Source: an uncultured Bdellovibrionales bacterium
Lineage (GTDB): Bacteria > Patescibacteriota > Minisyncoccia > Moranbacterales > UBA1568
DNA: 35,309 nt
Assembly (NCBI GenBank): GCA_964561695.1
Contig: CAZLQC010000005.1
Coordinates: 1 to 35,309, forward strand
Direction: 5' to 3'
Positions 3,402 to 20,073 of the stretch are shown piece after piece; the stretch's first letter is position 1, and every line of letters starts with the position of its first letter. The position numbers and the translations under genes were made by a program. A model generated the notes under the pieces. It was not told the DNA's origin. It made no database searches and saw only the letters and a program-made list of their open reading frames with translations.

Positions 3402-4478
3402 TTATTTCAGTTCTCCATGTTCACCCTCTGACAAAGCTTCGCCAACACGAGCAGCCTCAAGATAATCCCCTACTCGATGAAGGCGTTTCTCAGCATCATC
3501 ATATTTCTTATGGGCATTACCAAGATGACTCCCCAAGATTTCAAATTCTTTGGTGAATTTGTCTTGCTCACGAGAAAGTCGCTCTAACTGACTCATGATT
3601 TCTTTGGCTCGCTTTTCAATCTGCATACCCTGCAATCCAAAAAGAATCGTTCGCATATAGGCATAGAAAGAGTTTGGTGAGACCGGAATGACACGCCGAT
3701 CTGCAAAATAGGTCATCAGCCCCTGTTCATCCTCATCTTTGATAATAGTCTCGTAGTAGACGTTTTCAGCTGGTATATACATAAGCGCAAAATCCAGCGT
3801 GCCTTCAGCGGGAACTATGTACTTGGTAGCTATAGCATCGACGTGTTTTTTGACATCTTGATAGAACTGCTTGCGAGCAGCTTTTTTCTCTACTTCATCT
3901 GTGGCAACAACCACTCGTTTGAAGTTTTCTAAAGGAAACTTAGAATCAATACTGATAATACCCCCCTTCAGGAAGATAACAGCATCTACCGCTTCTCCAC
4001 TTTTGAAAGCATACTGAATGGCAAAATGTTCCTTTGGGAGCATCTGGGTTAACAAGTCTTTCAACAAAAGCTCACCGAAGCCTCCGCGAATCTTTGGCGC
4101 CTTGAGAATCTCTTGGAGCGAAGCTACTTCTTTACCAACTTCGAGAATCTTTTCGCTCGAGTGACGCATAGCTTCAAGTGAACGTTGCACATCAGCATAG
4201 GAACGCGCTGCTCCGTCCAAACGTTGATCTAAGCGTTCTCCATTATCATGAAGACGCTTATCGAGTGTGGTCTGGAAAGAAGACAGCTGTTGATTCATAG
4301 TAACCGATAGAAAGCCCATCTTCTCTTCGAAGCTTTGGGTCATTTTTTCTAGTCGTTCTTGATACAGAGCATCTGTCGCCTGATTGACTCCGCCTGACTT
4401 ACGTTGCAAAAGCAAAACGAGCCCATACAAGAGGCCCGCTATTCCTATGCCAATACTGATATAAAGAAAGGCTGCCAT
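3402..4478 (-). CDS. rmuC: DNA recombination protein RmuC
   Basis: N-terminal TM, a long coiled coil and a C-terminal nuclease-like region with IDSKFPLENF and MYIPAENVYYE, typical of the RmuC family. Confidence 0.85.
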   Translation of the reverse strand: MAAFLYISIGIGIAGLLYGLVLLLQRKSGGVNQATDALYQERLEKMTQSFEEKMGFLSVTMNQQLSSFQTTLDKRLHDNGERLDQRLDGAARSYADVQRSLEAMRHSSEKILEVGKEVASLQEILKAPKIRGGFGELLLKDLLTQMLPKEHFAIQYAFKSGEAVDAVIFLKGGIISIDSKFPLENFKRVVVATDEVEKKAARKQFYQDVKKHVDAIATKYIVPAEGTLDFALMYIPAENVYYETIIKDEDEQGLMTYFADRRVIPVSPNSFYAYMRTILFGLQGMQIEKRAKEIMSQLERLSREQDKFTKEFEILGSHLGNAHKKYDDAEKRLHRVGDYLEAARVGEALSEGEHGELK

Positions 4479-5278: not shown

Positions 5279-7774
5279 ATGAAAGAAAAAAAGGTCACCC
5301 CTCCAAAAAGTGCCCCAGGTGTACTGGCTCGCACTTTTCATGAAATTCTGATTGCCGACAAACGCTCTTATGAGCCGTTTGTTAAGGTATTTCGTGCAGA
5401 AGGAGAAAATGTCAGTAAACTTGATCTTGGTACCCTTGTAGGAGTGTTTGAGGTAGATGAAAAAGATGAAGATGCTGCCTATATTGTTAATTTTCTAGCC
5501 TCAGTAGCGAAGAAAGAGTATTTTAATAATCCGAGACGTGGTCCTATCGAAAGTTTCGAAGCAGCCCTCCACAAAGTCAACGTGGCTCTTGCTGAACTAG
5601 TAAAACATGGCAATGTCTCTTGGCTTGGTAAGCTACATGGGGTCTTGGCCGTCCTCGAAAAAAATAATCTCCATTTCTCTGTTACCGGTGAAGCCGCTCT
5701 GCTTCTTTTCCGTCAGGAACAATTTTCCGAAATAAGTGAGGGCCTGGCTTCAAGTGAAGCTTCTGTGCATCCACTAAAAACATTTGTGGAGGTCTCTAGC
5801 GGACGCCTCATGGAAGACGATAGTATTATCCTCTCCACACCAGAACTTCTCGCTCTTTTTCCTTTAGACTACCTCACCAAACAAGCTGTGCGTATGAACG
5901 CTCAGGCTTTTCGCCAGTTCCTCAGAACAGCCTTGGTCAACGAAATAGACATGGCCGCAGTCTTAGCTATTGAGCTCAGCGTTGCCAATCTTGAGGCCCC
6001 AGTCCCCTCCCTCAAAACAAAAAGTGGGTCTCGTCCCAAAAACCAGACCGTGGCCAACGCTTTCAGTCAGGCTACCTTTACTCCTGCCAAACCTCCTATC
6101 CCCCTTGATGATCCAGAACCCGCTCCTGTAGCAACTTCCCCAAGCAAGGAAGAGTTTATTGACGAAAAGACTGGTCATATTTATGTCCAGGGAGATGAGA
6201 TTGGCGATGGCTCCTCACTCAAACATTCAGTCATCCTGGAAAGTTTTCGTGAGGCGACTTCTCGTGTAGGCGAGTTCTTTTCACGAACTGTTCGCCGACA
6301 AGGCAAGAAAACTGCTCGTCTTGGCGCCTTTCTTCTCTGGGAGAGCCGTACCCAAACTGCTCGTCTTGCTCGTAAAGCTGCTCAAAAAATAAGCTCCCTC
6401 AAGGCCACCCTCGCTGAACAACAGAAAGCGAAAGCTCTACAACAAGTACGACAAATGGAAAAGAAGGTTCGTCAGGAAACAAAGCGCCAGGCTGAAGCCT
6501 TGGTAGAACCAGAAATAATAGCCGACGAAATAACCCTTCCAATCCAAGTGACAATACCTCCAGAAGCAGTAGGAGAAACTATTTCTGAATCTTCTCTAGA
6601 GAGAGTAGCTACTATAGAAGAAAGCGTTGTTCCTAGTCATATTGAGCGTTTTCGCTCACTCTATCAGTCAAAACCTCCTTCTACCATAGCCCCTCCAGTT
6701 TCCCCAACAAAAACCCCCAAGACCCCTCTCCAAAAAAATTCTACCCAAAAAGATACCTCTGTTCGTCTTGATACGTGGAAACATTCTTTTGAAAAATGGC
6801 GTAGCACTACCTCTTCTTCTCTCAAGACCTTCTCTCAAGTCATCCTCAAACAAAAAAAGATTATCCTTATCTCTTTTGGTGGACTTGTCATAGTGAGTGG
6901 ATTGGGCTTTCTATTTTTACACTTCAAAACAAACCCTCAAGCAAGCAAGCCCGAGATTCCTTCACCAATCACCTCTGCCCCAGCGCCTACAACACTCGAA
7001 ACCAACTCTCTTCAGGCCGAATCTACTCTTACCCTCAATAAAGAACTTGTTGCCCTCGTCTTTCTTGAGAATCAAGGCTATGGGGCTACCGCCAAAAGCA
7101 TTGTGGCTCTCGATAGCAAAGAAGAGTTCATTGTCCCTGACATCAAGGGTGAGATCCGCTTCTTGGCTCCTATGAAAGACTTGCGTCTCATCTTTGTCCT
7201 CACCAGTCAAAATGAACTTTTTGCTTGGAGCCCTCTTGCTAAAACCTTTACCAAAAATGAGCTTGTCTTGCCAGAAAATGCTCGCGTAACAGGTATTGGA
7301 AGCTACCTCACCTATCTCTACGTACTTGATCGTGGCAATAATCAGCTTTACCGCTACCCGCGATCAACACTTGGCTTTACGGAATCTACCAACTGGATGA
7401 AAGAATCTTTTGAACTGACCGATACTGCTTTCTTGGCTATCAACGAAACGGTAGCTCTTGCCCCTTCTCGTGAACACTTGCTCTCTTTTTCACAAGGCAA
7501 AAATACTGGTACCTTCAGTCAAAGCAAGACCGAAGAGGATATGATTTTTATCCAGGCACTGACTACGGACAGTGACTTTCCTTTTATTTATGCTTTGGAT
7601 GACAAGAACATTCTCTCTATTTGGAGTCTTGAGCGCAAACTGCTCCATACCTATACACTCAAAGACGCTCCGAAAGAGGCAACCTATCTCGCCTCAGATC
7701 CCGAAAAGAAGGTCCTTATCCTTGGCAACAAAGATGGCAACGTCACTCGCTATACCAACGTCACCAGCGAATAA
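5279..7774 (+). CDS. Large bitopic membrane protein (831 aa), unknown function
   Basis: Cytoplasmic alpha/beta N-domain, a Pro-rich and Lys/Gln-rich helical linker, one TM (about 6859-6927, IILISFGGLVIVSGLGFLFLHF) and a C-terminal beta-rich domain of about 270 aa. That domain has blade-like motifs (LYVLDRGNNQLYRY, IYALDDKNILSIWS, LILGNKDGNVTRY). Confidence 0.6.
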   Translation: MKEKKVTPPKSAPGVLARTFHEILIADKRSYEPFVKVFRAEGENVSKLDLGTLVGVFEVDEKDEDAAYIVNFLASVAKKEYFNNPRRGPIESFEAALHKVNVALAELVKHGNVSWLGKLHGVLAVLEKNNLHFSVTGEAALLLFRQEQFSEISEGLASSEASVHPLKTFVEVSSGRLMEDDSIILSTPELLALFPLDYLTKQAVRMNAQAFRQFLRTALVNEIDMAAVLAIELSVANLEAPVPSLKTKSGSRPKNQTVANAFSQATFTPAKPPIPLDDPEPAPVATSPSKEEFIDEKTGHIYVQGDEIGDGSSLKHSVILESFREATSRVGEFFSRTVRRQGKKTARLGAFLLWESRTQTARLARKAAQKISSLKATLAEQQKAKALQQVRQMEKKVRQETKRQAEALVEPEIIADEITLPIQVTIPPEAVGETISESSLERVATIEESVVPSHIERFRSLYQSKPPSTIAPPVSPTKTPKTPLQKNSTQKDTSVRLDTWKHSFEKWRSTTSSSLKTFSQVILKQKKIILISFGGLVIVSGLGFLFLHFKTNPQASKPEIPSPITSAPAPTTLETNSLQAESTLTLNKELVALVFLENQGYGATAKSIVALDSKEEFIVPDIKGEIRFLAPMKDLRLIFVLTSQNELFAWSPLAKTFTKNELVLPENARVTGIGSYLTYLYVLDRGNNQLYRYPRSTLGFTESTNWMKESFELTDTAFLAINETVALAPSREHLLSFSQGKNTGTFSQSKTEEDMIFIQALTTDSDFPFIYALDDKNILSIWSLERKLLHTYTLKDAPKEATYLASDPEKKVLILGNKDGNVTRYTNVTSE

Positions 7775-7778
7775 CTAC

Positions 7779-10700
7779 TTATCTAGCAATAACAGCTCCT
7801 GCCCCAGGAATCTTCTTGAAAAGAATGTACTTATTTCTTCCCGTGCGAATACGTACAAAACCTCTATCAACAATGGTTTCTTTTGGAATCTCCTGAACTG
7901 AACCGTGAACGGTTTTGAGAACTTCCACTTCTTGGAATATGCTTGCCTCTTCTCTGGCGAGTACCTCATCATCCCCATTGAGCTCGATTCTCATTTCTCT
8001 TTCACCCAAAGTGAAATGAGAAAGTACTTTTCTAGAATCTTTGAGTGAAACGTCTGTACGCTGAAGCTTAAACCCATCTAGATCCTCTTTCGAGAGGTTA
8101 TCTAATACTTCTGTCACTGTTTCTGGCGTAGTTTCATTTTTTTCAAAAGTCACCATACGCGAGCGATACCCATTGCCACTAGAAATTTCTCCTGAGTACT
8201 CATTTACTACATCTAGACCAAACTGCTTGGCAATAGTAGTGAGTGTATTTGTGTCACGAAAATCAAGTGAATAAATCATATTGACCACAGCTCTTCCACC
8301 AGACTTCAAAACTCGACTCATTTCTTTCAAGGCTTCCAGACGCTCATATTCCCCTTTACTTGGCACTAGCTTGGTATAATGAAGAGCTAGTGAGAGATTA
8401 ACATAGTCTACACTCCCACTTTCAAGCGGAATATCAGTGAAGCTCCCAACAATGGTCTCACTTTCTGGCGTTTTGTTAGCAAAGTGCTCTGGGTTGATAT
8501 CAAGACTGATGATATTGGAGCGCAAAGTATCTTTACTGTGCCTACGGAGCATTTCAGGTCCAGAAGCCAGATCTAGAATGCGCGGATTCTCTATTCCTTG
8601 TTTATTGGCCATTTCTGAAAGCACCGTTGCTACCACTCGACTAGCATTACTCTGATAACTCCTGCTTCCTAATTCACGGTAACAGTCCGCATACTCTGCA
8701 CCATGTTTCTCCAAAAAAGTACTAAATTTCTTCTCGCCAATTTCTTTGACTGAAGCAAAGATGCGATTCATCTTTTCGAATGAAGAAAAATAGTAATCAG
8801 CCAGTTCTGGATTAACTGACAGATCAGCTTTTTCGGCTTCTTCAGACTTTTCTAAAATCTCCATTTCCACTTCGGTAATTGGAATACCTTTGAGAAGTTT
8901 TTCGATAGCTCGGTGCTTGACTTGGATGTACTCATGTTTTCCTTCTTCGATAGTACCTTTGGTGAGAATAGTTCGTGATTCTACATCACCTTCGATACCG
9001 GGGCGGTAGACACGAGCCTGTTGCTGGTGCTTATCAGCTATAGTCCAGGGCTCATTATAAAAAATAATTTCCTGTCCTGCTGAATAGTCCACTGCCACAT
9101 CAGCAGTCTTACCACTCACTACAAGAAGTATTCGTTTATCACCTCTCTGAAACTCTTCCTGGACAGTCAGGCGCTCTTCTTGGGTAACACCTCCATGAAT
9201 GACTCTAACTTCTACCCCAGCTGGTAATTTGAGGTCTTGGATAATACCATCTTCTCCTCGGATAACATTAGAGATATAGTCGTTCACAAAAAGCACAGCT
9301 CTATCTTTGCTCACGAAAGCATTTTTCAAATCGTTATTGAGCATTTCCAGCTTACTACTTGGTACTCCAGGAGTAATATCCAAAAGTCTTGGGTTAAGCA
9401 AAAACTTTTGAAGCATTTGCATCTTTTCAGTTGGAGTAAGTTCATCCTCATCAAGCAACACCTGATAGATTTCTTCTTCACTTGGAGTAAGTTCAACTGA
9501 GCTTACTTGTTCGGTAAGGTTTGGCATTTCTAAGTGTTCGCCCAAACTCTTCATCTGGAGACGTGGGATGAGAAGCTGGCGAATATCCAGTAAGTCTCCA
9601 TGGATAATAGAGCGGGTCAAAGTGCGACTATCCGTCTCGGCAAAACGCTCTGGATACATGAGTTTTAAGAGCATGGCTACATCTTCTACCTTATTCGGTA
9701 CTGGAGTACCAGAAAGCATGGCAACATATTTTTCGTCCCTTTCTTTATTATCAGCAAGGCGGAGTAAGTGTTCCGAGCGTACACCAGTTTCTATATTCTT
9801 AAATTTATGGACTTCATCAACAATAAGCATCCCGTAATCTAAAGTCTCAAGTGCTTGTGTATATTCAGCAGTCAGACGTTCATGAGAGATAATAATGTAA
9901 TCATATAGACCTTTTTCTATACCATCCAACTGACTTACATCAGTGATCCGTAGTACTCTTGGCTCTTTCTTGAAATACCCCACCTGTTTACTATTTTCAT
10001 CTATCTTATCTGATAAATACCCCTGCCAAGTGTCTATTGCATTACTTGGTACTACTACTAAGGCTGTCTCTACACCAAGGTGTTCTTTAGCCAGAATAGC
10101 TGAAGCGCTCTTACCTGCCCCCATTTCATCAGCTATGAGAACCCGTTTCTTGGCTTCAATTTCTCGAATATTTATACGCTGATAGATATCAGGAAATTCT
10201 CGCCCTTCTTTGAGGCCATCTACCATTCCTACTGGTACCTCTACGCTCAAGATAGAGATATAGAACTTTTCAACACTTAAAATAGTCTGCATTAGCTCTG
10301 CGCTCGCAATATTTTGAGCTTCTGTACGCAGATTGTTGAAATAGTCTCGAAAGAGAGCTATGTTCTGTTCGATACCTAATTCTCTCTTAGATAGCGTCTT
10401 CTCCAAAGCATCTCTTTTAATCACCTCAGCCAGTCCTTCCATCAAACTTGGTGTGCCAAAGAGAGCTTCAGCTCCCTTGAGACTCTCTACAGAAAATGGT
10501 GCTGGGGTGAGTAGATAATCTCCTAGATACTCTGCTAGGATACTTTTCACTTTTTCTACTGGTATCCCCTGATACTCCGGATGGAGAGCATAGAGGATAT
10601 CGAGAGATTGAGAGGATCCAAAAAGAGAGATAAGATTTTGTATTCCTTTTAAGTCTTCTTTATTCTGAAACCTATTTTCTAATCTCTCTTTCAAAACTAA

Positions 10701-13592
10701 CTCACTGTTATTAACTTTCTCATCAAGAACTTGTTTTATTTGAGTTATAAGATCTGGATGGTAATGAACTACTATCTTTCTTGTTCCATCAAGATAGTCC
10801 CGAAACCACTCTGGATATGATTCTAGAGCCTGACTAGCTATATTTTTAATAACCCTTTCACTCGTTTCCAGCTTCTTGGCAACACCTAAATTTGTAAGCC
10901 ATCCTTCAGGCGCCATTGTAGGCCTTTCTGCTGCAATATCTTTTACTCTTTCTATAAGATCAGGATGATAGTGCTCAAAGATTTGACCTTTTTTGGATTG
11001 AAAATCTCGAAACCAATCTGGATGACTTTCTCTAAACTGATCGGCAATTTTTCTGAAGGCTGGCCTATTTAAGGATAAATGAGCAGCAGCAACTTCACTA
11101 GTCATCCAACCTACTGGGGCATATTCTGGTCTGTTGCTAATTTCTTCACGAATCTTCTCTATAAGATCAGGATGATAATACTCGTGTGATCTTCCAACTT
11201 TACTACTGTATACTTGAAACCACTCAGGGTGAGCGTCTCTAAATGAGTTTGCAATTTTTTCTGTCGTGTTTTGAGCTATTCCCAATTCATCTCCAGTTCT
11301 CCTATTTGTCATCCACCCTTCAGGAGCCTTATCAGCTCTAAGCGAAATTCTTTCTATTATTTTCTCTACTAAGTTGGGATGATAATGTGTAGAAACTTTC
11401 CTTGTTCCATCAAGATACTCCTGAAACCACTCAGGGTGAGCATCCTTAAACGGCTCAGCTATTTTTTTCACAAAAGCTTCTGCTGTCCCTAATGAATCAG
11501 CGATACCATTATTAGTTATCCACCCATCGGGTGCATACTCTGGTTTTTCAAAAAACTTCTTTTTAATTATCTGTATAAGGTCTGGATGACAATATTCACC
11601 AATATTATTATTCTTTGTAAGATACTCTCTGAACCACTCTGGGTGTGACTTTCGATATTGATCAGCAATTTCTTTACATGTGTGATGTGAACTATTTAAC
11701 TCTTGGGCTATTTCGCCAAAGGTACGCCACTCCACTGGCGGTTTTTCTGGTCTACGGGCAATCTCTTCTTGTATTTTGTGTACCAAGTCTGGGTGATAAT
11801 GCTCATTGACTCTTCCTGTTACAATTTCAAATTCCTGAAACCAGCCAGGTTGTGACTCTCGATATTGATCAGCGATTTTACTGCACGTTTGTTTACTTAT
11901 GTTAAGATCTTCAGCAATAGCACTGTTGGTAACCCATCCTTTCGGAGCTTTACTAGGTCTTTCAGAGAGTCCTTGTTGTATTTTTTCAACAAGGACTGGA
12001 TGATAATACTCAAAAACTTGGCTCTGTTTTGATTTGTATCCTTTAAACCACTCTGGATGAGTCTCTCGATACTGCTCAGCAATTTTTGCGCACACTTTAC
12101 TTTCTCGCCCCAGTTTCTTAGCAAGACCAGATAATGCTTCCCAGCCTTCTGGAACATATTCTGGCTCTTCAAGAAGCTTACCTCTAATTTGTTCTACAAG
12201 ATCTGTATGATAATGTTCTGTTGTTCTGCCTCCTCTATCCTGGTACTCTCCAAACCACTCGGGATGTGTTGCTCTATAAGAATTAACTAGGCTTTTAGTA
12301 AGATTAGTGCCTATACCAAGAACAGTAGCTACTGATATAGTAGTTAACCATCCTTCCGGAGCTTTATCAGGTCTATTGGCTAAAACTTCCCGGACTTTTT
12401 CAATGAGATCTGGATGGTGGTATTCTCTCAGAGAACCTGATCTGTCTTTGAACTCATGGAACCACTCGGGATGATTACTACGAAACGGCTCCACCACTTT
12501 TTTTACAAGGGTTTCACTTATCCCAAATTGACGGCTAGTAGCTACTTTAGTCATCCAACCATCAGGAGCATTCCTATGCTCAGCTCTTTGCTCTTTGATT
12601 TTAAGATTTTTCGTTGCAACTTCTTTTCTAGATTGCCTCAAGTTCTCGATATTTTGGAAAAGAACTGCTATAGCTTCAGGAGGGTAAAAAAGTACTGGGA
12701 CTCTGTACTGACCTTCAAACTTTTGCGGTATTTTAATTTCAGAATTACTAGAATACACATCTTTCAAAAGAAAACTCACGCGTGATAAACTTAGTCCTGC
12801 CTGTTGAGATAAATCTCTGATACTCATCCACCCCTCTGGAGGATACCCTACGCGTAATAAGGGATGTTGCTCTATTAACCGGACTAATTCCGGAGGGTAA
12901 TAGTAATGTCTTTTTCCCTCTGCAGAAATAAACTCTCTTGGAGAGAGATTCTTATCTTCTCGAAGAAAGTTTTTAATAAGAGGTCTAACTCGACTTTGGT
13001 TATTAACCGAAAGGCCTTTTTGAAGCTCACTCACACTTTTCCATCCTTCTGGAACTCCCTCACTAATCTTAACTCTATCAGGAAGGTGTGATTTAACGTA
13101 TTCCACAGCTTCATTAGAATGGTATTTTACCTTTATCCCTTTTATTAAAAGTTCCCTTGGAGAGTCAGCTGATTGAAAATCTTCATAATATTTCTTTAGA
13201 ATCTTACTGACAGTAGTGCGATCAAGCCCTAATTCTCTTGCTATAAGTCTAGTATTTTTTCTGTCTCCAATCTTAGATTCGTCACTCCTGAGTTTTTCAA
13301 TCTCGGAATTAATATATGAGACCACTTCAGGTGGATAATGTAAAAACTTTCTGCCTCTTACATCGCACATCCATTGCGGATCTTGTAATTCTTTATTTCC
13401 ATTATATAAGGCCTGGATCGCTTTCTCTACTGATCTTGTACTATTAACACCTTCAGTTAATTTAGCTACTGCTCTGAGAGTTAACCATCCTTCCTGAGCC
13501 TGTTCACTTTTTTCACCTTCAAAAGAAGCCCCTTCTGATGAACTGTTTTGTTCCGCTTTTTTAGGTTGTGGAATGTCTGGATTAAATGCCAT
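7779..13592 (-). CDS. Giant multidomain protein (1,937 aa): HTH-like repeat array + SNF2-family ATPase + class I SAM methyltransferase
   Basis: A single uninterrupted ORF with ATG at 13592-13590. SNF2 motifs: LIADEMGAGKS (I), IVDEVHKFKN (II), LSGTPVPNK (III), QQQARVYRPG (VI). Methyltransferase motifs: ILDLASGPE (motif I) and LKSGGRAVV (post-motif). See the sub-features below. Confidence 0.85.
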   Translation of the reverse strand: MAFNPDIPQPKKAEQNSSSEGASFEGEKSEQAQEGWLTLRAVAKLTEGVNSTRSVEKAIQALYNGNKELQDPQWMCDVRGRKFLHYPPEVVSYINSEIEKLRSDESKIGDRKNTRLIARELGLDRTTVSKILKKYYEDFQSADSPRELLIKGIKVKYHSNEAVEYVKSHLPDRVKISEGVPEGWKSVSELQKGLSVNNQSRVRPLIKNFLREDKNLSPREFISAEGKRHYYYPPELVRLIEQHPLLRVGYPPEGWMSIRDLSQQAGLSLSRVSFLLKDVYSSNSEIKIPQKFEGQYRVPVLFYPPEAIAVLFQNIENLRQSRKEVATKNLKIKEQRAEHRNAPDGWMTKVATSRQFGISETLVKKVVEPFRSNHPEWFHEFKDRSGSLREYHHPDLIEKVREVLANRPDKAPEGWLTTISVATVLGIGTNLTKSLVNSYRATHPEWFGEYQDRGGRTTEHYHTDLVEQIRGKLLEEPEYVPEGWEALSGLAKKLGRESKVCAKIAEQYRETHPEWFKGYKSKQSQVFEYYHPVLVEKIQQGLSERPSKAPKGWVTNSAIAEDLNISKQTCSKIADQYRESQPGWFQEFEIVTGRVNEHYHPDLVHKIQEEIARRPEKPPVEWRTFGEIAQELNSSHHTCKEIADQYRKSHPEWFREYLTKNNNIGEYCHPDLIQIIKKKFFEKPEYAPDGWITNNGIADSLGTAEAFVKKIAEPFKDAHPEWFQEYLDGTRKVSTHYHPNLVEKIIERISLRADKAPEGWMTNRRTGDELGIAQNTTEKIANSFRDAHPEWFQVYSSKVGRSHEYYHPDLIEKIREEISNRPEYAPVGWMTSEVAAAHLSLNRPAFRKIADQFRESHPDWFRDFQSKKGQIFEHYHPDLIERVKDIAAERPTMAPEGWLTNLGVAKKLETSERVIKNIASQALESYPEWFRDYLDGTRKIVVHYHPDLITQIKQVLDEKVNNSELVLKERLENRFQNKEDLKGIQNLISLFGSSQSLDILYALHPEYQGIPVEKVKSILAEYLGDYLLTPAPFSVESLKGAEALFGTPSLMEGLAEVIKRDALEKTLSKRELGIEQNIALFRDYFNNLRTEAQNIASAELMQTILSVEKFYISILSVEVPVGMVDGLKEGREFPDIYQRINIREIEAKKRVLIADEMGAGKSASAILAKEHLGVETALVVVPSNAIDTWQGYLSDKIDENSKQVGYFKKEPRVLRITDVSQLDGIEKGLYDYIIISHERLTAEYTQALETLDYGMLIVDEVHKFKNIETGVRSEHLLRLADNKERDEKYVAMLSGTPVPNKVEDVAMLLKLMYPERFAETDSRTLTRSIIHGDLLDIRQLLIPRLQMKSLGEHLEMPNLTEQVSSVELTPSEEEIYQVLLDEDELTPTEKMQMLQKFLLNPRLLDITPGVPSSKLEMLNNDLKNAFVSKDRAVLFVNDYISNVIRGEDGIIQDLKLPAGVEVRVIHGGVTQEERLTVQEEFQRGDKRILLVVSGKTADVAVDYSAGQEIIFYNEPWTIADKHQQQARVYRPGIEGDVESRTILTKGTIEEGKHEYIQVKHRAIEKLLKGIPITEVEMEILEKSEEAEKADLSVNPELADYYFSSFEKMNRIFASVKEIGEKKFSTFLEKHGAEYADCYRELGSRSYQSNASRVVATVLSEMANKQGIENPRILDLASGPEMLRRHSKDTLRSNIISLDINPEHFANKTPESETIVGSFTDIPLESGSVDYVNLSLALHYTKLVPSKGEYERLEALKEMSRVLKSGGRAVVNMIYSLDFRDTNTLTTIAKQFGLDVVNEYSGEISSGNGYRSRMVTFEKNETTPETVTEVLDNLSKEDLDGFKLQRTDVSLKDSRKVLSHFTLGEREMRIELNGDDEVLAREEASIFQEVEVLKTVHGSVQEIPKETIVDRGFVRIRTGRNKYILFKKIPGAGAVIAR
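8200..8700 (-). other. Class I SAM-dependent methyltransferase domain (Methyltransf_11-like) within the giant ORF
   Basis: Motif I ILDLASG at 8559-8579, then ISLDINP (acidic residue at the end of beta2), DYVNLSLALHY and LKSGGRAVVN. I saw no (D/N/S)PP(Y/F/W) motif. Confidence 0.7.
8958..10205 (-). other. SNF2 ATPase core (SNF2_N + helicase_C) within the giant ORF
   Basis: Walker A DEMGAGKS at 10107-10130, DEVH at 9807-9818, motif VI QQQARVYRPG at about 9001-9030. Confidence 0.85.
10704..13493 (-). repeat. Coding tandem repeat: about 13 HTH-like modules (nine canonical 69-aa / 207-nt units at 10704-12566, four degenerate units at 12567-13493)
   Basis: Canonical unit: P(E/D)GW.T....A..LG......KIA..(F/Y)R..HPEWF.(E/D)(Y/F)........EHYHPDL(I/V)E.I......P..A. 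The HPEWF codons recur about every 207 nt (about 10805, 11015, 11220, 11425, 11635, 11840, 12050, 12255, 12462). Degenerate N-terminal units carry YPPE in place of YHPDL. One has a classic HTH, LIARELGLDRTTVSKILKKY. Confidence 0.85.
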
Positions 13593-13622
13593 CTTAGTCT
13601 TCTACAATATCCTCAGTATAAC

Positions 13623-13650
13623 AAAAAACCACCCGTTTGGGTGGCTTTTT
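13623..13650 (-). terminator. Intrinsic terminator between the ATPase gene and the giant ORF
   Basis: CCACCC-gttt-GGGTGG hairpin (13629-13644) flanked by A6 and T5 runs. On the minus strand it is followed by TTTTTT. It lies 17 nt after the stop of the ATPase gene. Confidence 0.8.
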
Positions 13651-13660
13651 AATAATCTTT

Positions 13661-16138
13661 TTATCCTTTCGTTTTCAAACGATCAAGAATTTCTTGATTC
13701 ACTAGTTTGGTATCTCGTCCATAACGAAGACGAGAAAGCTCTTTGAGAGCCACCGCTACTTCACGACTCCCCTGCGTTGGTGGAAAAGTTTTCATATTGA
13801 AGGGCTTGGTCAGCTCATTATTCATCAAGAGGCGGGCGAAACAGTTGAAGTTATCAACATTCACAATATCAGCGGCTGTAAAAACTGGGGTAAACTGCTT
13901 CTCCAAGAACTCAGCATCTTCTGGACCAACACGGAAGGTGACGAGAGAACCTACGTTACCAAAGACTGCTTTAGAGATATCTTCCTTGAGTTGTCCGATG
14001 AATTGATGAGCTAGCATCAAAGTCAGTTTATACTTTCTAGCTTCAGAAAGTATCTGAGCAATAGAGCTCGTCGTGACATTCTGGAATTCATCCAGGTACA
14101 AGCTAAATTCCTGACGCTCGTTCTCTGGGGTGTCGACTCGTGACAAGGCAGCCATCAAGAGTTTCCCAACTATCACCATCCCCAGGAGACGAGCATTAAT
14201 CTCCCCGATCTTCCCCTTGGAAAGATTAACTAAGAGAATCTTCTTGGTATCCATGATTTCACGGAAGTTCAATGTGCTTTTCTGTTGACCAATAATAGGC
14301 CTCACAAGATCATTAGAGGTAAATGGGGTTAATTTAGAGGTGATGTAGGGAACCATATTAGCCAGTGCGCCCTCACCTCCTGCCTTCTCAGCTTCATTTT
14401 GCCAAAAATCTCGTACTATCGGATTCTGACAGAAACGGAGCTTCATCCGACGAAAATCCTCATCAGCTAATACCTTAGAGATTTCCATCAGGGTAGATCC
14501 GCTCTCTGGGTGATCCATGATAAGAAGCATGGCATTGCGCATATACTGCTCAAACATAGGGCCTCCAGTAGCTTTGAGATCATAGAGCTGATCAAAAATA
14601 CCGATCATCTCATTGATAACAAAAGTCTTTTGCTCAGGATACGCTGGATCGTACTCAAGCATATTCATACCGAGAGTGCGCTCTACATCACTTGGGTCAA
14701 AAATAATGACATCCTGAGCCCGTTCTTTGGGGATACAGGCCAGAATGTCCTCAATAGCATCACCATGTGGATCAAGAAAACAAAAACCCCTGCCCGCTAT
14801 GGCATCGCGTTTAGCAATTTCCTGAAGAAAGTTTGATTTACCCACACCTGTCTGCCCAATAACATAGAGGTGTCGAAGACGATCTTTATCACCGATACGA
14901 ATATCGGTTTTGACCCCTCGATACTCATTGTAACCAAGGAGCGTCCCTTCGGTCGGTACATTGATTGGTGGTGGTGCCGCCCCCGCTTTCAGCCACTTAA
15001 TCTTCGGTGTCTCAGTGGTAGAGATAGGAAAGTGAAAAATACCAGCAATCTCTTCGGTATTCAGCAAAAAAGCATGCTCATCGTCAAAGTTCCGAAAGAT
15101 ATAATGGTAGGCTGCATCACGAGTCTTGAGACGCTTACGAACACGAAAGCGATTTACATCAGGATTTTCAAATTGACCAAAAGCACTCTCTATCTGACCA
15201 AGGATCTGTTCAGCTCGGGTCTGTGTCGTGGCAGAGGCCAACAAACGCACATTGACACGAAAAGCCCCTTTACTCGTCTTGTCTTCAATAGACTTGATCA
15301 GATCTTGATCTTGAGGAGTAAGTTGAATAGGTGGCTTTTCTATTTGAGAATTATTTGAATTAGTTGGATTAAAGCCACTAATCACTCCCTTACCTACTTC
15401 TTTACCAAAAGACTGCAGTTTGCGGTTAGTGCCAAGGTCTCGCAGTTGCTTCCCTTCTTGAAGACTGCGAGCTACCGTACGACCTTCGTGACGCCAGGCA
15501 TCTCCAGCTGGCGCTAGCACCACTTGGATAGCAGCACCCTCATCAAGGGTAGCCAGTTTACTCAAAGCATTCGAGAGTTCATTAAGTGGGTCCACCCCCA
15601 GGCTCTGATAGGTTCGTAACGGCAAAGCATGGCTATGTGACAATTGAAGCTCCGTGATGGCTACGTGTCCGCCAGGGGTAAAAATAGTGTAGTCAGGGAT
15701 GCGCTCCAGATGTGCCTGAGGAAAGAAGCTGTGAATCTGCTTCTCCACACTCTCTCGAAATACCCTCGGCACTGCTACTAAGAAAAAAATTTCCTCGCTC
15801 GTAGCTGGATTAGCAATCTCAAGGACGACCGTAGGCGCGTGATAAAGAAATCTCTGGAAAAAATTACCCGGGTGCTTGAGTCCAGTAAGAGAAACGAGGA
15901 GCTGTTCCATCGCGGCAATCTCTTCTTTCCAAATATCACCCTTATCAGCTCCTCCGTCGGTACGTTTTTGTGGACGAGCTACTTTGACTACTTCAAGATC
16001 AAGTTCTAGTGATTTGTTGATTTGTTTACGAAAGCCATAAAAAGTCTTCACCAAAAGCAGGCCTCCTGAAAAAAGAGTGAGGAACCCGAGGGCCCACGCC
16101 AAAGGAACTAGAATGGTGTTAATGGTTATTTCTATCAT
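13661..16138 (-). CDS. Membrane-anchored FtsK/HerA/VirD4-like (type IV coupling-protein-like) P-loop ATPase
   Basis: The ORF track starts at TTG 16156, but AGGAGG (16142-16147) followed by ATG 16138 is the better start. N-terminal TM hairpin. Walker A GQTGVGKS (14834-14857) followed by FLDPHGD. Walker B LYLDEFQ (14084-14101). C-terminal LMLAHQFIGQL...GNVGSLVTFRVG is typical of the TraD/VirD4/HerA clade. Confidence 0.7.
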   Translation of the reverse strand: MIEITINTILVPLAWALGFLTLFSGGLLLVKTFYGFRKQINKSLELDLEVVKVARPQKRTDGGADKGDIWKEEIAAMEQLLVSLTGLKHPGNFFQRFLYHAPTVVLEIANPATSEEIFFLVAVPRVFRESVEKQIHSFFPQAHLERIPDYTIFTPGGHVAITELQLSHSHALPLRTYQSLGVDPLNELSNALSKLATLDEGAAIQVVLAPAGDAWRHEGRTVARSLQEGKQLRDLGTNRKLQSFGKEVGKGVISGFNPTNSNNSQIEKPPIQLTPQDQDLIKSIEDKTSKGAFRVNVRLLASATTQTRAEQILGQIESAFGQFENPDVNRFRVRKRLKTRDAAYHYIFRNFDDEHAFLLNTEEIAGIFHFPISTTETPKIKWLKAGAAPPPINVPTEGTLLGYNEYRGVKTDIRIGDKDRLRHLYVIGQTGVGKSNFLQEIAKRDAIAGRGFCFLDPHGDAIEDILACIPKERAQDVIIFDPSDVERTLGMNMLEYDPAYPEQKTFVINEMIGIFDQLYDLKATGGPMFEQYMRNAMLLIMDHPESGSTLMEISKVLADEDFRRMKLRFCQNPIVRDFWQNEAEKAGGEGALANMVPYITSKLTPFTSNDLVRPIIGQQKSTLNFREIMDTKKILLVNLSKGKIGEINARLLGMVIVGKLLMAALSRVDTPENERQEFSLYLDEFQNVTTSSIAQILSEARKYKLTLMLAHQFIGQLKEDISKAVFGNVGSLVTFRVGPEDAEFLEKQFTPVFTAADIVNVDNFNCFARLLMNNELTKPFNMKTFPPTQGSREVAVALKELSRLRYGRDTKLVNQEILDRLKTKG

Positions 16139-16156
16139 ACCCTCCTGTATGTACAA

Positions 16157-16546
16157 TTATTTTAGCTGTCCTTCAAGTTTTTCGTGTAAGCGCTCAATCA
16201 GGGTGTCACGAAACACATCGAGAGCGTAGAAGTCTTCAAGAGTGCGTGCCACGCTCACAGCATGCACTACTCCCTTGGTATCAGCCAAAGAAAGAAGCTT
16301 AGTAACACGCTCTTCTTCATCGACGGAAGAGAGGCTCGCGGCATCATCCTTGACCTGGTTCTGCGTAGTTGTTTGTAGACTGGCTGTATGGGTATCGATT
16401 TTCTTTAAGAGTTCGCCCATTCGTTCGCTCTGGTGTTCTGGAGCTTTCTCAGGAGACAGCTCTTTCTCCATAAGACTCGTCGCTTCAGGCATCCCCGTAA
16501 TACCTTCAACCGGTGATCCACCAGTTATTTCAATACGTTCATCCAT
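16157..16546 (-). CDS. Small acidic hypothetical protein (129 aa)
   Basis: ATG start. Its stop abuts the RBS of the ATPase gene. No recognisable domain. Confidence 0.5.
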   Translation of the reverse strand: MDERIEITGGSPVEGITGMPEATSLMEKELSPEKAPEHQSERMGELLKKIDTHTASLQTTTQNQVKDDAASLSSVDEEERVTKLLSLADTKGVVHAVSVARTLEDFYALDVFRDTLIERLHEKLEGQLK

Positions 16547-16573: not shown

Positions 16574-16891
16574 TTAGACAGCTGCTACCCCCATATACTT
16601 ATCCATATCAGAACGAAATTCCGTCACTACCTCACGAATAAAAACTGGGTAATTGGGGATTTTTTCTGCCAAAAAGGCTTCTACCGTATCTGCTTTTGCT
16701 TTACTCTCGAGTAATTTCTCATACTCTTTGGCTCCGTGAGCTCCCAACTTATCAATAGTCGCCAAGAAAAGCCTCTTCAGGAAGACCTCTCCAATCTTTC
16801 CTATCAAATCATCTTGTTTTTCTGGTGATAGATCTTGGAGGCCAAAAATTTCTATAATTTCTTGACGATGCTGTTCTAATACTTGGTTCAT
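16574..16891 (-). CDS. Small helical hypothetical protein (105 aa)
   Basis: Its ATG overlaps the TGA of the upstream 1,061-aa ORF (ATGA at 16888-16891), which suggests translational coupling. No recognisable domain. Confidence 0.55.
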   Translation of the reverse strand: MNQVLEQHRQEIIEIFGLQDLSPEKQDDLIGKIGEVFLKRLFLATIDKLGAHGAKEYEKLLESKAKADTVEAFLAEKIPNYPVFIREVVTEFRSDMDKYMGVAAV

Positions 16892-19800
16892 ACGCGTATA
16901 AGTTTATCGAGGTTAAATTTATTTTCTGGAGATTCAAAACCGAGAGTCACCATGCGTCGAGTATAGGCCGCTACTGTTTCGTTTCTTCCAGGTTCTGCTA
17001 CTGTACCATAAGCACTGACTGCCAATTCCTTAAATCTATTTATTCTACTAATCTGATCTGTGCCGAGGATAGCTCGATTCTCTATAAGAGTCTCTCCTGG
17101 CGTATTGGCTGCCAAGACGACATCAGTCATTTTCACAGTAGGCGCATTGAGGATACTATCGCGAAAGCGTAAGTCATTGGTGGCAAAAATAGTTCTGCGG
17201 GTATCTTCCAATTCTTTGTAGTAGACAGCCCTTTCTACCCTCCCCTCACCAAGCAGTTTAGCTGTTCCGTCAACTGGCTCATTCAAGTTTTCGCTCTCAG
17301 CAAATGAGTTTTCGTCTACCTGGGCCAGTAAGTCTTCTGGTTTGCCTCCTCCGTCACCTCCTCCAGTCGTATCTTCTAGCGCAAATGCGTTGGGTGTCTC
17401 AACGGTAGCTGTTGCTGGTACCTCTGGCACTCCGAAAACTTCTGGTGTTACAGGAACGGATACTTCTGGCACTGGAGCGTCGACTATCTTCCCGTCTAGA
17501 ATCTCCTGCAGTTCTTCTTGACTCACCAGACTACCAAGCTTGAGAGTGTCATCAGCATAGATAGTTTCTACATTACCACTTGGAAATCCAGCCAGCGTTC
17601 GAGCTTCTGGAGAGAGGGCTTCCAGTTTAGTAGCGATCAAGTTCTGTAATGAAGTAATGACCCTTGTCTTCTCTGCTCCATTGAGCTCAGATGGCACTGA
17701 TTTCTCAAGTACTCCCCAGAGTCCTTTGCGACTATCAGCTGTAGTGAGAGTGTATGTTTCCGGGAGCGTGGCAGTAGAGACGGGTACTTCTGGAATCTCA
17801 GCTGTCGTAGAGGGAACTGGTGTCTCTGCAGAGCCTCCTCCTACCTGATCATAAGACATGGTCGGGGCATTACCTGGTAATGATGTCTCTCCTCCTGATG
17901 CAAGAGCAGTCTCAGCTGATGGCGTCACGGATGTAGCGGCATCATTGGCATGATGAAGATAAGAGAACGCTTCTGAGAGAGCTGCCCCCCCGAAGGCTCC
18001 CCCGAGACGCAAAGACCACTTACGGAAAAAAGTTTTCCTTCGCTTCTTGTCTATCTGTTTATCTATGCTTTGATTCTCCAAATCCAGGAACGTATTCAGT
18101 TTTTTGGCAAGTTCTTCTGGAGAGGTCCCTTCTTCATTTTCAATAAAATTTTCAATCTCAGTGGTGACTTTTTTCTCTTGGCGTCCACTAAAAAACTTTT
18201 CTGCAGCCGCGTCGAGCGTCACTGCTCCACCCAAGCCAGCACAAAACCTTCTCACCGCTACTGCTCCAATGGCTATGCCTGCTCCTGCCCCACCAATAGA
18301 GCCTAAGGCTATAGAACTTCCAAAGAGGCCAGCGCCAAGTAGCATCTTTTTTCCTGTTGAAAGTCCATTGTACTTCTCTCCGATCCAATCAAGTTTAGCT
18401 CCCAGCTTGCCTGATAGACTACTCTTTTCTTTCTCGGCATAAAGATTAGCTAAAGCGGCCCCCTCAGCCACCTTGAAGTACACTCCGAGTTCCAGTATTC
18501 CCTGAGCCTTCTCTTTCTCACCCAAAAGAGTAATCTGGGCAATGTCGGCTTCTTTTTTCTCGACGAGAAGTGCTTGATATTTTTCACGAAGCATGATCAG
18601 ATCTGCATCCTCAGTCTTTTCAAGCCAGGTAAAACTGCGCTTGAGACGCTCCCACTGAGTGGTCATTTCGACATCTTTTGTGACGTAGGCCAAACGAGCA
18701 GAGGCGATTCTTTCTTCAAGAGTACCCTCTCCTTCCAACTTCTCTCTAGTTTCTTGAGTTGCTTGGATAACCACTCCCTCTTCTGCAGACTGTTCTACAG
18801 ACACTGGCGCTGTCCCCAAAATCAAGGCTTCTGGGATAGCCTGAGCGGTCTCCTTGGCGACATCACTCACTTCGATACTTACTGGTCTTGGACCAGTCAC
18901 TTCGGGCTCTATATTTTCTCGAATCAGTGTGTTAATCTGCTCCTCTGATCCATCAAGATCGAGAAATCGATTAACTGCCTCCTGGCGAGCCGCTTCACTC
19001 CCCTTGAGGCGCTCTTCGAAACTTACTGCCTTGGCTTTGAGATCAAGGCTCTGTTCTTTGAGTGACTCAAGTACTGGATCAACAACTACATCTTTCTTGC
19101 GCCTACTCGAAGTAGCTTGTGGCTCTCGGTGAGCTATCTGATCATCTACTGTTTTAATATCTGCCTGAACAGCAGCAATATTTCTTTTTAAAGCTTCGAT
19201 ACGATTCTCTTCTTGAAGAATAATCGTTCCTGCTCTACTCTTCTCTTTTTCTTTACGCTCTATTTCTTGGGCTTTTTTCTTTTCCTCAATAGCCAGCCTT
19301 TTCTTAACGTCAAGCATGGCTACTCCTTTTTCTTTTTTCAATTGAGCAATGTCTTGTAGTACAGCTGGCCTCTCAGGAGCTGGAACTTCCTTGATATTCT
19401 GAAGCAACTCATGAAGCTTCGCCTCATCTGCAGTAACTACAGGAGTCTTGGCTACTTCCTCCTCCTTTATGGTTTTTAGAACCTCTCGAATAGCATCCAG
19501 CCCGTCTTTGGTTGTATTGCCTGTATCATTGATGACTCCCTCAGGCTTTACCTCACTCATTGCTATTGGTGCCATCTTTTCATCTACTCTTTTTGTTTTT
19601 GCTATCTGCTCTTTGGTGGCAGCAATCTGTCTCCCAATGGCATTCAATTCCCAAATAGGCCTCGTAATCTCACCTGCCTGCTTCTCTAGTTGGCGTAAGC
19701 TCACCTCCAAAGAAGCGCTCTCTGGACGTTCTGCATGCAGATCAAGGTTGGCTTGTACTTTTTCTGGGTCAGTGACTGGCACTGGTACTGGATTACTCTC

Positions 19801-20073
19801 TCCAATACCAACCAAAACCGTCTCGGGAGTACTCACCGCTACTTCTACCGGTACAAAATCTTCTTGTTCTACGAATGGATTAGCTACCGTTGCCTCTAAA
19901 ACTTTAGTTGGAGTGACTGGTATTTCTGTGGACAATTCTAGTGAGACTGGCTCTGCCAGCTTAACATCTTTACCATCAGTAAAAAGAAGGTCCCCCGTCT
20001 TAATAAGTGGGGACTCATTCCGATCTGTGGGACTCCTTCTTAAACGCCCAAATACTCTATCGAACGCTGGCAT
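16888..20073 (-). CDS. Large coiled-coil protein with glycine-zipper membrane segments (1,061 aa), unknown function
   Basis: ATG preceded by AAGGAAAAGGA. There is a Lys/Glu-rich coiled coil (about 19083-19323). Gly/Ala-rich hydrophobic segments lie at about 18214-18345 (MLLGAGLFGSSIALGSIGGAGAGIAIGAVAV...) and about 17953-18012. The C-terminal region is Pro/Thr/Val-rich and contains GGGDGGG. Confidence 0.6.
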   Translation of the reverse strand: MPAFDRVFGRLRRSPTDRNESPLIKTGDLLFTDGKDVKLAEPVSLELSTEIPVTPTKVLEATVANPFVEQEDFVPVEVAVSTPETVLVGIGESNPVPVPVTDPEKVQANLDLHAERPESASLEVSLRQLEKQAGEITRPIWELNAIGRQIAATKEQIAKTKRVDEKMAPIAMSEVKPEGVINDTGNTTKDGLDAIREVLKTIKEEEVAKTPVVTADEAKLHELLQNIKEVPAPERPAVLQDIAQLKKEKGVAMLDVKKRLAIEEKKKAQEIERKEKEKSRAGTIILQEENRIEALKRNIAAVQADIKTVDDQIAHREPQATSSRRKKDVVVDPVLESLKEQSLDLKAKAVSFEERLKGSEAARQEAVNRFLDLDGSEEQINTLIRENIEPEVTGPRPVSIEVSDVAKETAQAIPEALILGTAPVSVEQSAEEGVVIQATQETREKLEGEGTLEERIASARLAYVTKDVEMTTQWERLKRSFTWLEKTEDADLIMLREKYQALLVEKKEADIAQITLLGEKEKAQGILELGVYFKVAEGAALANLYAEKEKSSLSGKLGAKLDWIGEKYNGLSTGKKMLLGAGLFGSSIALGSIGGAGAGIAIGAVAVRRFCAGLGGAVTLDAAAEKFFSGRQEKKVTTEIENFIENEEGTSPEELAKKLNTFLDLENQSIDKQIDKKRRKTFFRKWSLRLGGAFGGAALSEAFSYLHHANDAATSVTPSAETALASGGETSLPGNAPTMSYDQVGGGSAETPVPSTTAEIPEVPVSTATLPETYTLTTADSRKGLWGVLEKSVPSELNGAEKTRVITSLQNLIATKLEALSPEARTLAGFPSGNVETIYADDTLKLGSLVSQEELQEILDGKIVDAPVPEVSVPVTPEVFGVPEVPATATVETPNAFALEDTTGGGDGGGKPEDLLAQVDENSFAESENLNEPVDGTAKLLGEGRVERAVYYKELEDTRRTIFATNDLRFRDSILNAPTVKMTDVVLAANTPGETLIENRAILGTDQISRINRFKELAVSAYGTVAEPGRNETVAAYTRRMVTLGFESPENKFNLDKLIRV

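Follow-up and report, generated by a model that had tools for sequence, protein, structure and literature searches.

SNF2 motors are double-stranded DNA (dsDNA) translocases that track along their substrate, and Rrp8/nucleomethylin and Bud23 are methyltransferases that make 1-methyladenine (m1A) and 7-methylguanine (m7G) in ribosomal RNA (rRNA), that is, purines methylated on a ring nitrogen. In the DarB-type dyad of phages, plasmids and conjugative elements, a DNA adenine methylase is followed C-terminally by a SWI2/SNF2 ATPase (Iyer et al. 2017, PMC5512222). We analyzed a 35,309-nucleotide stretch of DNA (hereafter the window; contig CAZLQC010000005.1, positions 1 to 35,309, of assembly GCA_964561695.1) from an uncultured ultra-small bacterium of the Candidate Phyla Radiation (CPR), and in particular a 5.8-kb gene whose product joins a tandem array of winged helix-turn-helix (HTH) modules, an SNF2 ATPase, a class I S-adenosylmethionine (SAM) methyltransferase and a conserved C-terminal domain. 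Judged by its sequence, the protein belongs to the SNF2 and class I methyltransferase superfamilies. We tentatively regard it as a DNA-anchored, ATP-driven translocase that would methylate a purine ring nitrogen in nucleic acid, with a small partner protein, where present, reading or removing the product. The gene and its parts are as follows.

7779..13592, minus strand: whole gene for the array-SNF2-methyltransferase protein, 1937 aa, with an ATG start and the stop codon at 7779-7781 (list of open reading frames, ORFs, and translation)
12576..13505, minus strand: four diverged winged-helix modules of the 'YYPPE' subtype, aa 30-339, basic with an isoelectric point (pI) of 9.5 (family hidden Markov model, HMM; Pfam HTH_28; computed charge)
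10713..12575, minus strand: nine canonical 69-aa winged HTH modules, aa 340-960 (phasing of 69 aa or 207 nt; AlphaFold2, AF2; Foldseek)
10203..10712, minus strand: conserved pre-SNF2 domain, aa 961-1130, ...LFGS..A.DILY..HPEY...V..VKS.LA.YLGD... (columns conserved in 16 family members)
8823..10202, minus strand: SNF2 ATPase core including brace helices, aa 1131-1590 (Pfam, PDB sequence match, phrog_62)
8118..8822, minus strand: class I SAM methyltransferase with an N-terminal three-helix extension, Rrp8/nucleomethylin-like, aa 1591-1825 (Pfam, PDB profile, Foldseek)
7782..8117, minus strand: conserved C-terminal domain of strands, a long helix and a three-stranded sheet, aa 1826-1937 (AF2, alignment)

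Integrity of the gene

An original prediction, made from the letters of the window alone, had described a single unbroken 5.8-kb ORF and quoted from it the motifs LIADEMGAGKS, DEVHKFKN, LSGTPVPNK, QQQARVYRPG, ILDLASGPE and LKSGGRAVV. The frame is indeed open throughout from its ATG, and all six motifs occur in the translation, in columns conserved across 16 homologues. It is nevertheless a gene rich in repeats, and an assembly artefact or decaying pseudogene, with the long ORF a functionless chimera across those repeats, would account for the absence of the exact protein from the public collection and for the splitting of the array into separate ORFs in six related loci. Against this, the 207-nt repeats are only 60-80% identical to one another at the DNA level, making a repeat-collapsed or chimeric assembly unlikely; every catalytic motif is intact within the open frame; and colinear homologues occur as single ORFs in many independent assemblies. 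We consider the artefact very improbable: the 1,937-residue protein is real and intact, and the architecture and motifs, intact and conserved across relatives as far as sequence can tell, argue for the function suggested above. In the six loci concerned (L006, L013, L014, L023, L053 and L058) array and core form two to four abutting same-strand ORFs, a split that may reflect true decay or frameshifting, or else misassembly of the repeats.

Distribution of the family

A search of 5.8 billion proteins returned about 18 relatives with 33-50% identity, all metagenomic, and a scan of one genome per species returned 56 related loci, all in metagenome-assembled genomes; the best match is a Kaiserbacteria contig with 59% identity over the C-terminal part. 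All members, in at least 56 genomes, share a colinear core of about 975 aa made up of the pre-motor domain, SNF2, methyltransferase and tail. Of the 56 loci, about 45 carry the titles of Patescibacteria/CPR lineages or of unclassified 'bacterium' genomes, the titled lineages being Kaiser-, Taylor-, Levy-, Roizman-, Vogel-, Uhr-, Magasanik-, Doudna- and Peribacteria, Paceibacterota, Minisyncoccota and many Saccharibacteria. The other 11 are titled 'uncultured Gammaproteobacteria' and come from co-assembly bins whose labels could not be checked. Occurrence is sporadic across many CPR lineages, and the homologue neighborhoods inspected in detail consist of chromosomal housekeeping genes.

The original prediction had left it to be checked whether the architecture recurs, and where. 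It recurs in the metagenome sequences described above, and no case was found in the phage, plasmid and viral collections searched: there was no full-core match among 50,697 phage records and 72,556 plasmid records, which match the SNF2 part alone at 22-25% identity, and a profile of the methyltransferase plus tail found nothing in the 2.9 million contigs of IMG/VR. The sole names given to the full architecture in the sources are 'SNF2-related protein' and 'SNF2 helicase/UbiE methylase', neither of them a functional name, and a literature search found no description of it, in keeping with the earlier view that the combination had not been described. The family is undescribed and accessory, and CPR/Patescibacteria-type metagenome genomes are the only ones in which it has been found so far.

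In six loci (L001, at 7875-9488, L020, L024, L043, L052 and L008) a large serine recombinase gene is found at 0.2-4.4 kb (within 6 kb) from the core gene, which hints that the gene is sometimes carried on integrative elements. Its G+C content in the window is 0.39-0.41 (positions 8000-14000) compared with 0.44-0.49 in most flanking genes, a dip that could reflect foreign origin or simply the composition of Lys/Glu-rich repeats. Because recombinases stand near six homologues and the G+C content falls over the gene, an accessory and occasionally mobile gene is hinted at.

The SNF2 motor and the domain before it

Both RecA-like lobes of the ATPase score above their Pfam cutoffs (SNF2-rel_dom, PF00176, aa 1149-1386, 63.4 bits against 24.9; Helicase_C, PF00271, aa 1427-1532, 39.5 bits against 23.5), and motifs I (DEMGAGKS), II (DEVH), III (SGTP) and VI (QQQARVYRPG) are all present and conserved across the 16 homologues, which agrees with the complete SNF2 core that had been predicted. 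The best PDB sequence match is the Sulfolobus SNF2/Rad54 protein 1z63 (6.6e-12). The core also matches the phage family phrog_62 at 1e-46, and its close sequence matches further include the phage and defense families ZorD, DpdE and DrmD.

The pre-SNF2 domain between array and motor (aa ~961-1130) had been taken for a helical linker of about 170 aa. The region itself stands, and what has to be given up is the loose linker, since the segment is a conserved domain of the family. By hhalign it is unrelated to the winged-helix module, and it has no match in Pfam or the PDB.

The winged-helix array and its replacements

The canonical modules carry the consensus APEGW..T....A..LG.....I.KIA..YR..HPEWF..Y....G...EHY.P(D/E)L, and their PxGW anchors at aa 343, 412, 481, 550, 619 (PVEW), 688, 757, 826 and 895 keep an exact 69-aa phase. 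All nine score 79-95 bits on a family HMM whose training set, 91 units taken from many proteins, includes these nine. Three of the diverged upstream modules are found by the same HMM (aa 30-102, independent E value 3e-6; aa 178-245, 1e-7; aa 249-318, 0.003), and the weakest, at aa 112-173, reaches only E 0.19, yet matches Pfam HTH_28 with 33 bits at 112-135. The estimate of about 13 tandem HTH-like modules has therefore held up, with 12 supported and one marginal.

The AF2 model of a single module, made from a 73-sequence alignment, has a mean predicted local distance difference test (pLDDT) score of 90.5 and the topology strand-helix-helix-hairpin-helix; the helices span 10-17 and 21-32, and the strands of the hairpin 39-43 and 49-53. 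It contains both an HTH and a beta-hairpin wing, so the module is predicted to fold as a winged HTH. Foldseek against the PDB returned only winged-helix proteins, headed by the mycobacteriophage Pukovnik Xis (4j2n) and RacA (5i44) and followed by TFE-alpha and MarR proteins. The strand-helix-helix-wing topology is common to the module and these excisionase/MerR-like proteins; the module differs from Xis and RacA in its extra C-terminal helix, in the conserved APEGW, HPEWF and YxPEL, and in showing no significant sequence or structure match to them. Searched against PDB sequences, its profile gave matches at chance level only. Pfam gives generic, mostly sub-threshold HTH matches to the array and no family covering the module, and NCBIfam gives none; in these resources the array is, as originally thought, no described family. 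Conservation across the 91 units is found at the APEGW junction between modules, in the HPEW loop and where the last helix begins (Y-x-P-(D/E)-L), and variation is greatest in the two HTH helices and in the wing loop. From the modeled fold we infer that the array may bind DNA.

In contrast to the core, the N-terminus is not conserved in the family. About half of the loci have a winged-helix array, with 4-12 copies, some members are bare cores without an array, and on other orthologous cores the winged helices are replaced by tandem repeats of at least five further types, unrelated to one another:

Loci L009, L019 and L046: 73-aa repeat at the N-terminus of orthologous cores
Loci L059 and L018: 65-aa repeat at the N-terminus of orthologous cores, in L059 a true Pfam HNH_repeat (E 8e-18)
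Loci L036 and L029 and protein P0010: repeat of ~80 aa, weakly related to the winged-helix module
Loci L043, L051, L045 and L031: further alternative N-terminal arrays

Whether the alternative repeats could all be diverged forms of a single module was considered and discarded, as only repeat type D shows a weak relation (74%) and types B and C show none.

An exhaustive profile search of 1.84 billion representatives found the winged-helix module in 915 protein clusters. It was tandemly arrayed, with 4-16 copies per protein, in all of the top 163 proteins, the set examined, about 33 of which combine the array with the SNF2-methyltransferase core and 27 with a ResIII/DEAD helicase. One such protein, P0019 (loci L061 and L062), is a ResIII/DEAD-type helicase with nine winged-helix modules at its C-terminal side. 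The most frequent fusion, in 56 of the 163, is to an N-terminal domain of ~245 aa with invariant P-R, G-x-N and E-E-G-N-x-x-F (P0017, P0018, P0023-P0025 and ~50 more; locus L060, 8001-11264). This domain has no match in Pfam or the PDB, and it is a second uncharacterised family. Recurring in these three architectures, the array is a portable module that goes with nucleic-acid enzymes, and it resembles the homing-endonuclease repeats (Pfam HNH_repeat, PF18780) in being a tandem array attached to such an enzyme. A role in nucleic-acid targeting would fit, since an HNH_repeat array is swapped onto the same core and the winged-helix array is also fused to a ResIII/DEAD helicase.

Methyltransferase and C-terminal domain

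The predicted class I methyltransferase was recovered by Pfam Methyltransf_11 (PF08241, aa 1673-1769, 40.4 bits, cutoff 21.2), and its SAM-motif columns D-x-A-S-G-P and S-x-D-x-N are invariant among the homologues; the AF2 model shows the alternating strands and helices of a Rossmann-like fold. Its nearest solved relative is nucleomethylin/Rrp8 (2zfu), by profile (E 1.4e-7) as well as by Foldseek (E 1e-9, TMt 0.73), followed in the Foldseek ranking by Bud23 in the Bud23-Trm112 complex and, in third place, by 2pxx, deposited as 'human putative methyltransferase MGC2408'. Sequence identity to the Rrp8/Bud23-type relatives is only ~17%. With the Rrp8 family of Pfam (Methyltransf_8, PF05148) the window protein scores 16.8 bits, under the cutoff of 27, and one homologue (P0001) reaches 27.8; on these comparisons Rrp8 is the closest relative of the methyltransferase, which is not demonstrated membership.

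A regular-expression search of the whole protein found no (D/N/S)PP(Y/F/W/H) motif of DNA N6-adenine and N4-cytosine methylases, and DNA-methylase names make up one of the top 50 Foldseek matches in BFVD and none of the top 50 in the PDB. The methyltransferase is not of the DNA N6A, N4C or C5 type, and the earlier description of it as a non-DNA-type enzyme stands.

The C-terminal 348 aa, comprising methyltransferase and tail, are modeled by AF2 as one compact unit (pLDDT 87.6, predicted TM score 0.87), with pLDDT 80-94 in the tail. The tail had been called unassigned. That part of the prediction is upheld, in that no known family matched and the Foldseek matches in the PDB and BFVD have query-normalised TM scores of 0.2-0.5, none covering the whole methyltransferase-plus-tail model; it can now be described more closely as a domain (aa ~1826-1937) that is conserved in 15 homologues and packs compactly with the methyltransferase.

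A small glycosylase-like partner

Clustering of the neighbors at all loci brought out two groups of small proteins whose genes adjoin the core gene, and the two groups are colinear with each other. By an HMM of both groups, a partner gene of 100-175 aa adjoins the core gene in 24 of 58 distinct loci (among them L003, L015, L022, L024, L031, L033, L038, L045, L048 and L057, and also L063 and L067), and in 17 of the 35 loci for which both flanks are available. Two placements occur, immediately upstream on the same strand and immediately downstream in convergent orientation. In a reverse look-up from three partner proteins, two adjoin an SNF2(-methyltransferase) gene, and the neighbor of the third is cut by the contig end. 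The partner occurs beside several N-terminal array types and so goes with the core.

When the partner family (73 aligned sequences) was compared by hhalign with a methylpurine-DNA-glycosylase (MPG) profile, the probability was 96.5% (E 7e-10), and for the long partner subgroup 97.5% (E 7e-12), over 106-108 colinear columns. The MPG profile comprised nine sequences, namely eight bacterial genes and human AAG, the latter validated by its tblastn matches to annotated 'DNA-3-methyladenine glycosylase' genes. Against the single human AAG sequence the probability was only 1-8%, significance arising only with the nine-sequence profile and the 73-sequence alignment. Two partner members bear the Joint Genome Institute label '3-methyladenine DNA glycosylase Mpg'. 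Where AAG has E125, Y127, N169 and R182, the short subgroup retains E/D-x-Y in 37 of 42 sequences and N and R in all 42. In comparison with MPG/AAG proteins (~190-210 aa), the partner lacks the middle insert and the C-terminal third. On these alignments it is probably a minimal methylpurine-DNA-glycosylase homologue.

The partner bears on two other views of what the methyltransferase acts on. One is that the protein is directed at RNA or the ribosome: it would methylate rRNA or a structured RNA, the SNF2-like ATPase, like RapA, would remodel a transcription complex or an RNA-protein complex, and the array would bind RNA or RNA polymerase. That SNF2 cores track dsDNA speaks against this, as do array domains of DNA-binding types (winged HTH and HNH_repeat), a conserved partner homologous to a DNA glycosylase, and a sporadic accessory distribution with swapped N-termini that is unlike that of a ribosome-biogenesis factor. 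In its favor are the identity of the closest solved methyltransferases as rRNA enzymes (2zfu nucleomethylin and Bud23-Trm112), the lack of a DNA-methylase motif, the near-neutral charge of the canonical modules and the precedent of the bacterial SNF2 protein RapA, which acts on RNA polymerase (PMC5512222). We think this explanation unlikely.

The other view is that a protein methyltransferase rides on a remodeler, so that the motor moves along DNA and the enzyme modifies a protein bound there, for example RNA polymerase or a nucleoid protein; in CPR bacteria this would be a chromatin-like regulator. Protein methylases do occur among seven-beta-strand methyltransferases of this size, the third Foldseek match (2pxx) is presumably one, and the conserved C-terminal domain could be a substrate adaptor. 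The top sequence and structure matches are, however, RNA base methylases, and a base as the substrate is indicated because the partner gene encodes a methylpurine-glycosylase homologue; protein methylation is accordingly an improbable alternative.

Proposed mechanism

The reading that we tentatively prefer, that of a DNA-anchored translocase methylating a purine ring nitrogen, can be set out in steps. The 13 winged-helix modules would hold the protein on dsDNA, through many weak contacts or along a long composite site, while the SNF2 motor pumps DNA or tracks along it and exposes bases. The Rrp8/Bud23-like methyltransferase with its C-terminal domain would then methylate a purine ring nitrogen (of the N7-G, N3-A or N1-A type) in the nucleic acid that the motor feeds to it, and the adjacent mini-glycosylase homologue, at about half of the related loci, may read or remove the methyl mark. 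Such a methylate-and-excise pair could serve genome conflict, by marking or damaging targeted DNA or by protecting the cell from its own enzyme, or it could write and erase a mark. We infer both the methylation substrate and the biological role. Among the functions offered by the original prediction, a sequence-targeted remodeler or modifier is the one that fits these findings.

Several results weigh against this reading. The nearest relatives of the methyltransferase act on RNA and not on DNA, and 2pxx is presumably a protein-lysine methyltransferase. Enzymatic m7G, 3-methyladenine (m3A) or m1A in DNA is not known as an established biological mark. The Foldseek matches of the module are weak (E ~0.03, TM ~0.5), and its nine canonical copies are near-neutral (pI 5.5-8), which is unusual for non-specific DNA binders. 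As to the partner, plain HMM searches of the PDB with its profiles did not recover MPG, its Pfam matches to Pur_DNA_glyco (PF02245) are colinear but sub-threshold, its long subgroup is without the catalytic E-x-Y, and about half of the complete loci do without it. The 35-kb window itself holds no glycosylase-like partner by six-frame hmmsearch --max (best E 0.36), and the member described here would work without an adjacent glycosylase gene.

A more specific version, which we think rather unlikely, is programmable DNA alkylation: a motor-driven enzyme would write m7G, m3A or m1A 'lesions' in DNA chosen by the array, and the mini-glycosylase would turn them into abasic sites or clear them from self DNA, giving a base-excision form of restriction or immunity, or else a write/erase mark, found so far in CPR bacteria only. 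If the preferred reading set out in steps above is true, the family would show a third coupling of motor and methylase, beside restriction-modification enzymes and the DarB-type phage proteins, and one that uses an rRNA-type purine methylase in place of a DNA N6A, N4C or C5 enzyme. A function would also be assigned to one of the largest genes of CPR bacteria, organisms with very small genomes and with systems of defense and genome maintenance that are poorly known. The recurrent mini-glycosylase partner makes it testable whether bacteria install alkylpurines in DNA deliberately, and the natural set of exchangeable tandem arrays of DNA-binding type on one enzymatic core is of interest for long-target recognition and protein engineering.

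Genomic surroundings

The flanks of the window hold genes for MreB, MurA, MurD, HolB, FtsQ, RmuC, glycosyltransferases and a DUF5663 protein, a gene content that fits a CPR chromosome. The immediate upstream neighbor, 68 bp from the SNF2-methyltransferase gene, encodes a VirD4/TraG-like ATPase. The elements between and around the two genes are:

13661-16156, minus strand: VirD4/TraG/HerA-like ATPase, 831 aa, membrane-anchored (phrog_5156 over the full length, 2e-78; PADLOC mad8, 9e-12)
13623..13645, minus strand: intrinsic terminator, GCCACCC-AAAC-GGGTGG followed by T6, between the VirD4-like and the SNF2-methyltransferase gene (read from the sequence and also found in a hairpin scan)
13615-13620, minus strand: -10-like hexamer TATACT, after the terminator and before the SNF2-methyltransferase gene; a putative promoter element
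16157-16546, 16574-16891 and 16888-20073, minus strand, and 5279-7774, plus strand: genes grouped with the VirD4-like ATPase

Beside the VirD4-like gene stand the DUF5663 protein and two large family-less proteins (1061 aa and 831 aa), each with one hydrophobic segment resembling a membrane span. The VirD4-like gene and its neighbors may be a DNA-translocation or secretion island, which in other genomes is not linked to the SNF2-methyltransferase gene. A link between the two was considered and rejected, as no counterpart occurs beside any homologue and a terminator separates the genes. The other window neighbors likewise have no counterparts near the related loci, apart from single matches for glycosyltransferase, RmuC and HolB.

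These surroundings bear on the case for a delivered effector, the function that the original prediction had put forward. A polyvalent or anti-restriction protein of this kind would be exported together with DNA through a type IV system and the neighboring coupling protein and, like DarB of phage P1, would protect the DNA with which it travels or modify it. The VirD4/TraG-like gene at 68 bp, the phrog_62 match of the motor, the serine recombinases near six homologues and the lower G+C content over the gene would all suit it. No coupling-protein neighbor was found at any related locus fetched, however, and the terminator stands between the genes; no further conjugation-like genes were recognized in the window, which has no tRNA and, around 4-21 kb, no att-like direct or inverted repeats that could mark the border of a mobile element. 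The core is absent from the phage, plasmid and IMG/VR collections, and methylase type and domain order are unlike those of the DarB dyad. With methylase, domain order, distribution and neighbor link all differing, the polyvalent, DarB-type effector was not borne out, and we regard it as improbable.

Of the remaining genes, an RmuC-family gene lies 3.3 kb downstream of the SNF2-methyltransferase gene in the window (3402-4478, minus strand) and 239 bp downstream at one Doudnabacteria locus (L059, 11286-12335), two cases that may be chance. Two adjacent paralogous genes for PMT_2-type (dolichyl-phosphate-mannose-type) glycosyltransferases occupy 20196-21785 and 21823-23724 on the plus strand, and three more glycosyltransferase genes are found elsewhere in the window.

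Comparison with known systems

No characterized family with the full architecture, a possibility that the original prediction had left to be checked, was found, and the protein is not a member of the DarB-type dyad, DISARM, Zorya or Dpd families, whose defining features were looked for and not found. With the DarB-type dyad of phage P1 the protein shares the union of a SWI2/SNF2 ATPase and a SAM methyltransferase in one giant polypeptide, here with a match to phrog_62, and by analogy the logic is likely the same, in that the translocase would feed DNA to the methylase. The order of the domains is reversed: here the methylase is C-terminal, Rrp8/Bud23-like and without the (D/N/S)PP(Y/F/W/H) motif. 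Unlike the DarB-type and other polyvalent proteins, it carries no other effector domains, its family is not found on phages or plasmids, and its gene stands among chromosomal housekeeping genes.

The SNF2 proteins of defense systems, namely DrmD with DrmMI of DISARM, ZorD of Zorya, DpdE of Dpd and BrxHII of BREX, fall in the same broad SNF2 clade and give partial PADLOC matches (1e-18 to 1e-10). These systems and the present family have in common an accessory distribution and a motor linked to a modification enzyme. The scores are nonetheless far below the NCBIfam cutoffs for DrmD (37.8 bits against 950) and DpdE (36.1 against 500), the methylase type differs, and no DrmA/B/C, ZorA/B/C or Dpd genes were found among the window proteins. 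Relative to Rrp8/nucleomethylin and Bud23, the methyltransferase is fused here to an SNF2 motor and an extra C-terminal domain, and no Trm112-like partner was seen.

In eukaryotes, DDM1/LSH together with DNA methyltransferases (DNMTs) and DEMETER/ROS1 bring together the same three activities, pairing an SNF2 motor and a methyltransferase with a DNA glycosylase whose substrate is the methylated base. The likeness would be one of analogy, as the proteins are unrelated except for the SNF2 core, the bases and the chemistry differ, and motor and methylase are fused in the CPR protein. The protein probably works most like the helicase-methylase machines of conflict systems, from which it is set apart by the lack of a literature description, an array without a family model, the type of its methylase and the mini-glycosylase of its relatives.

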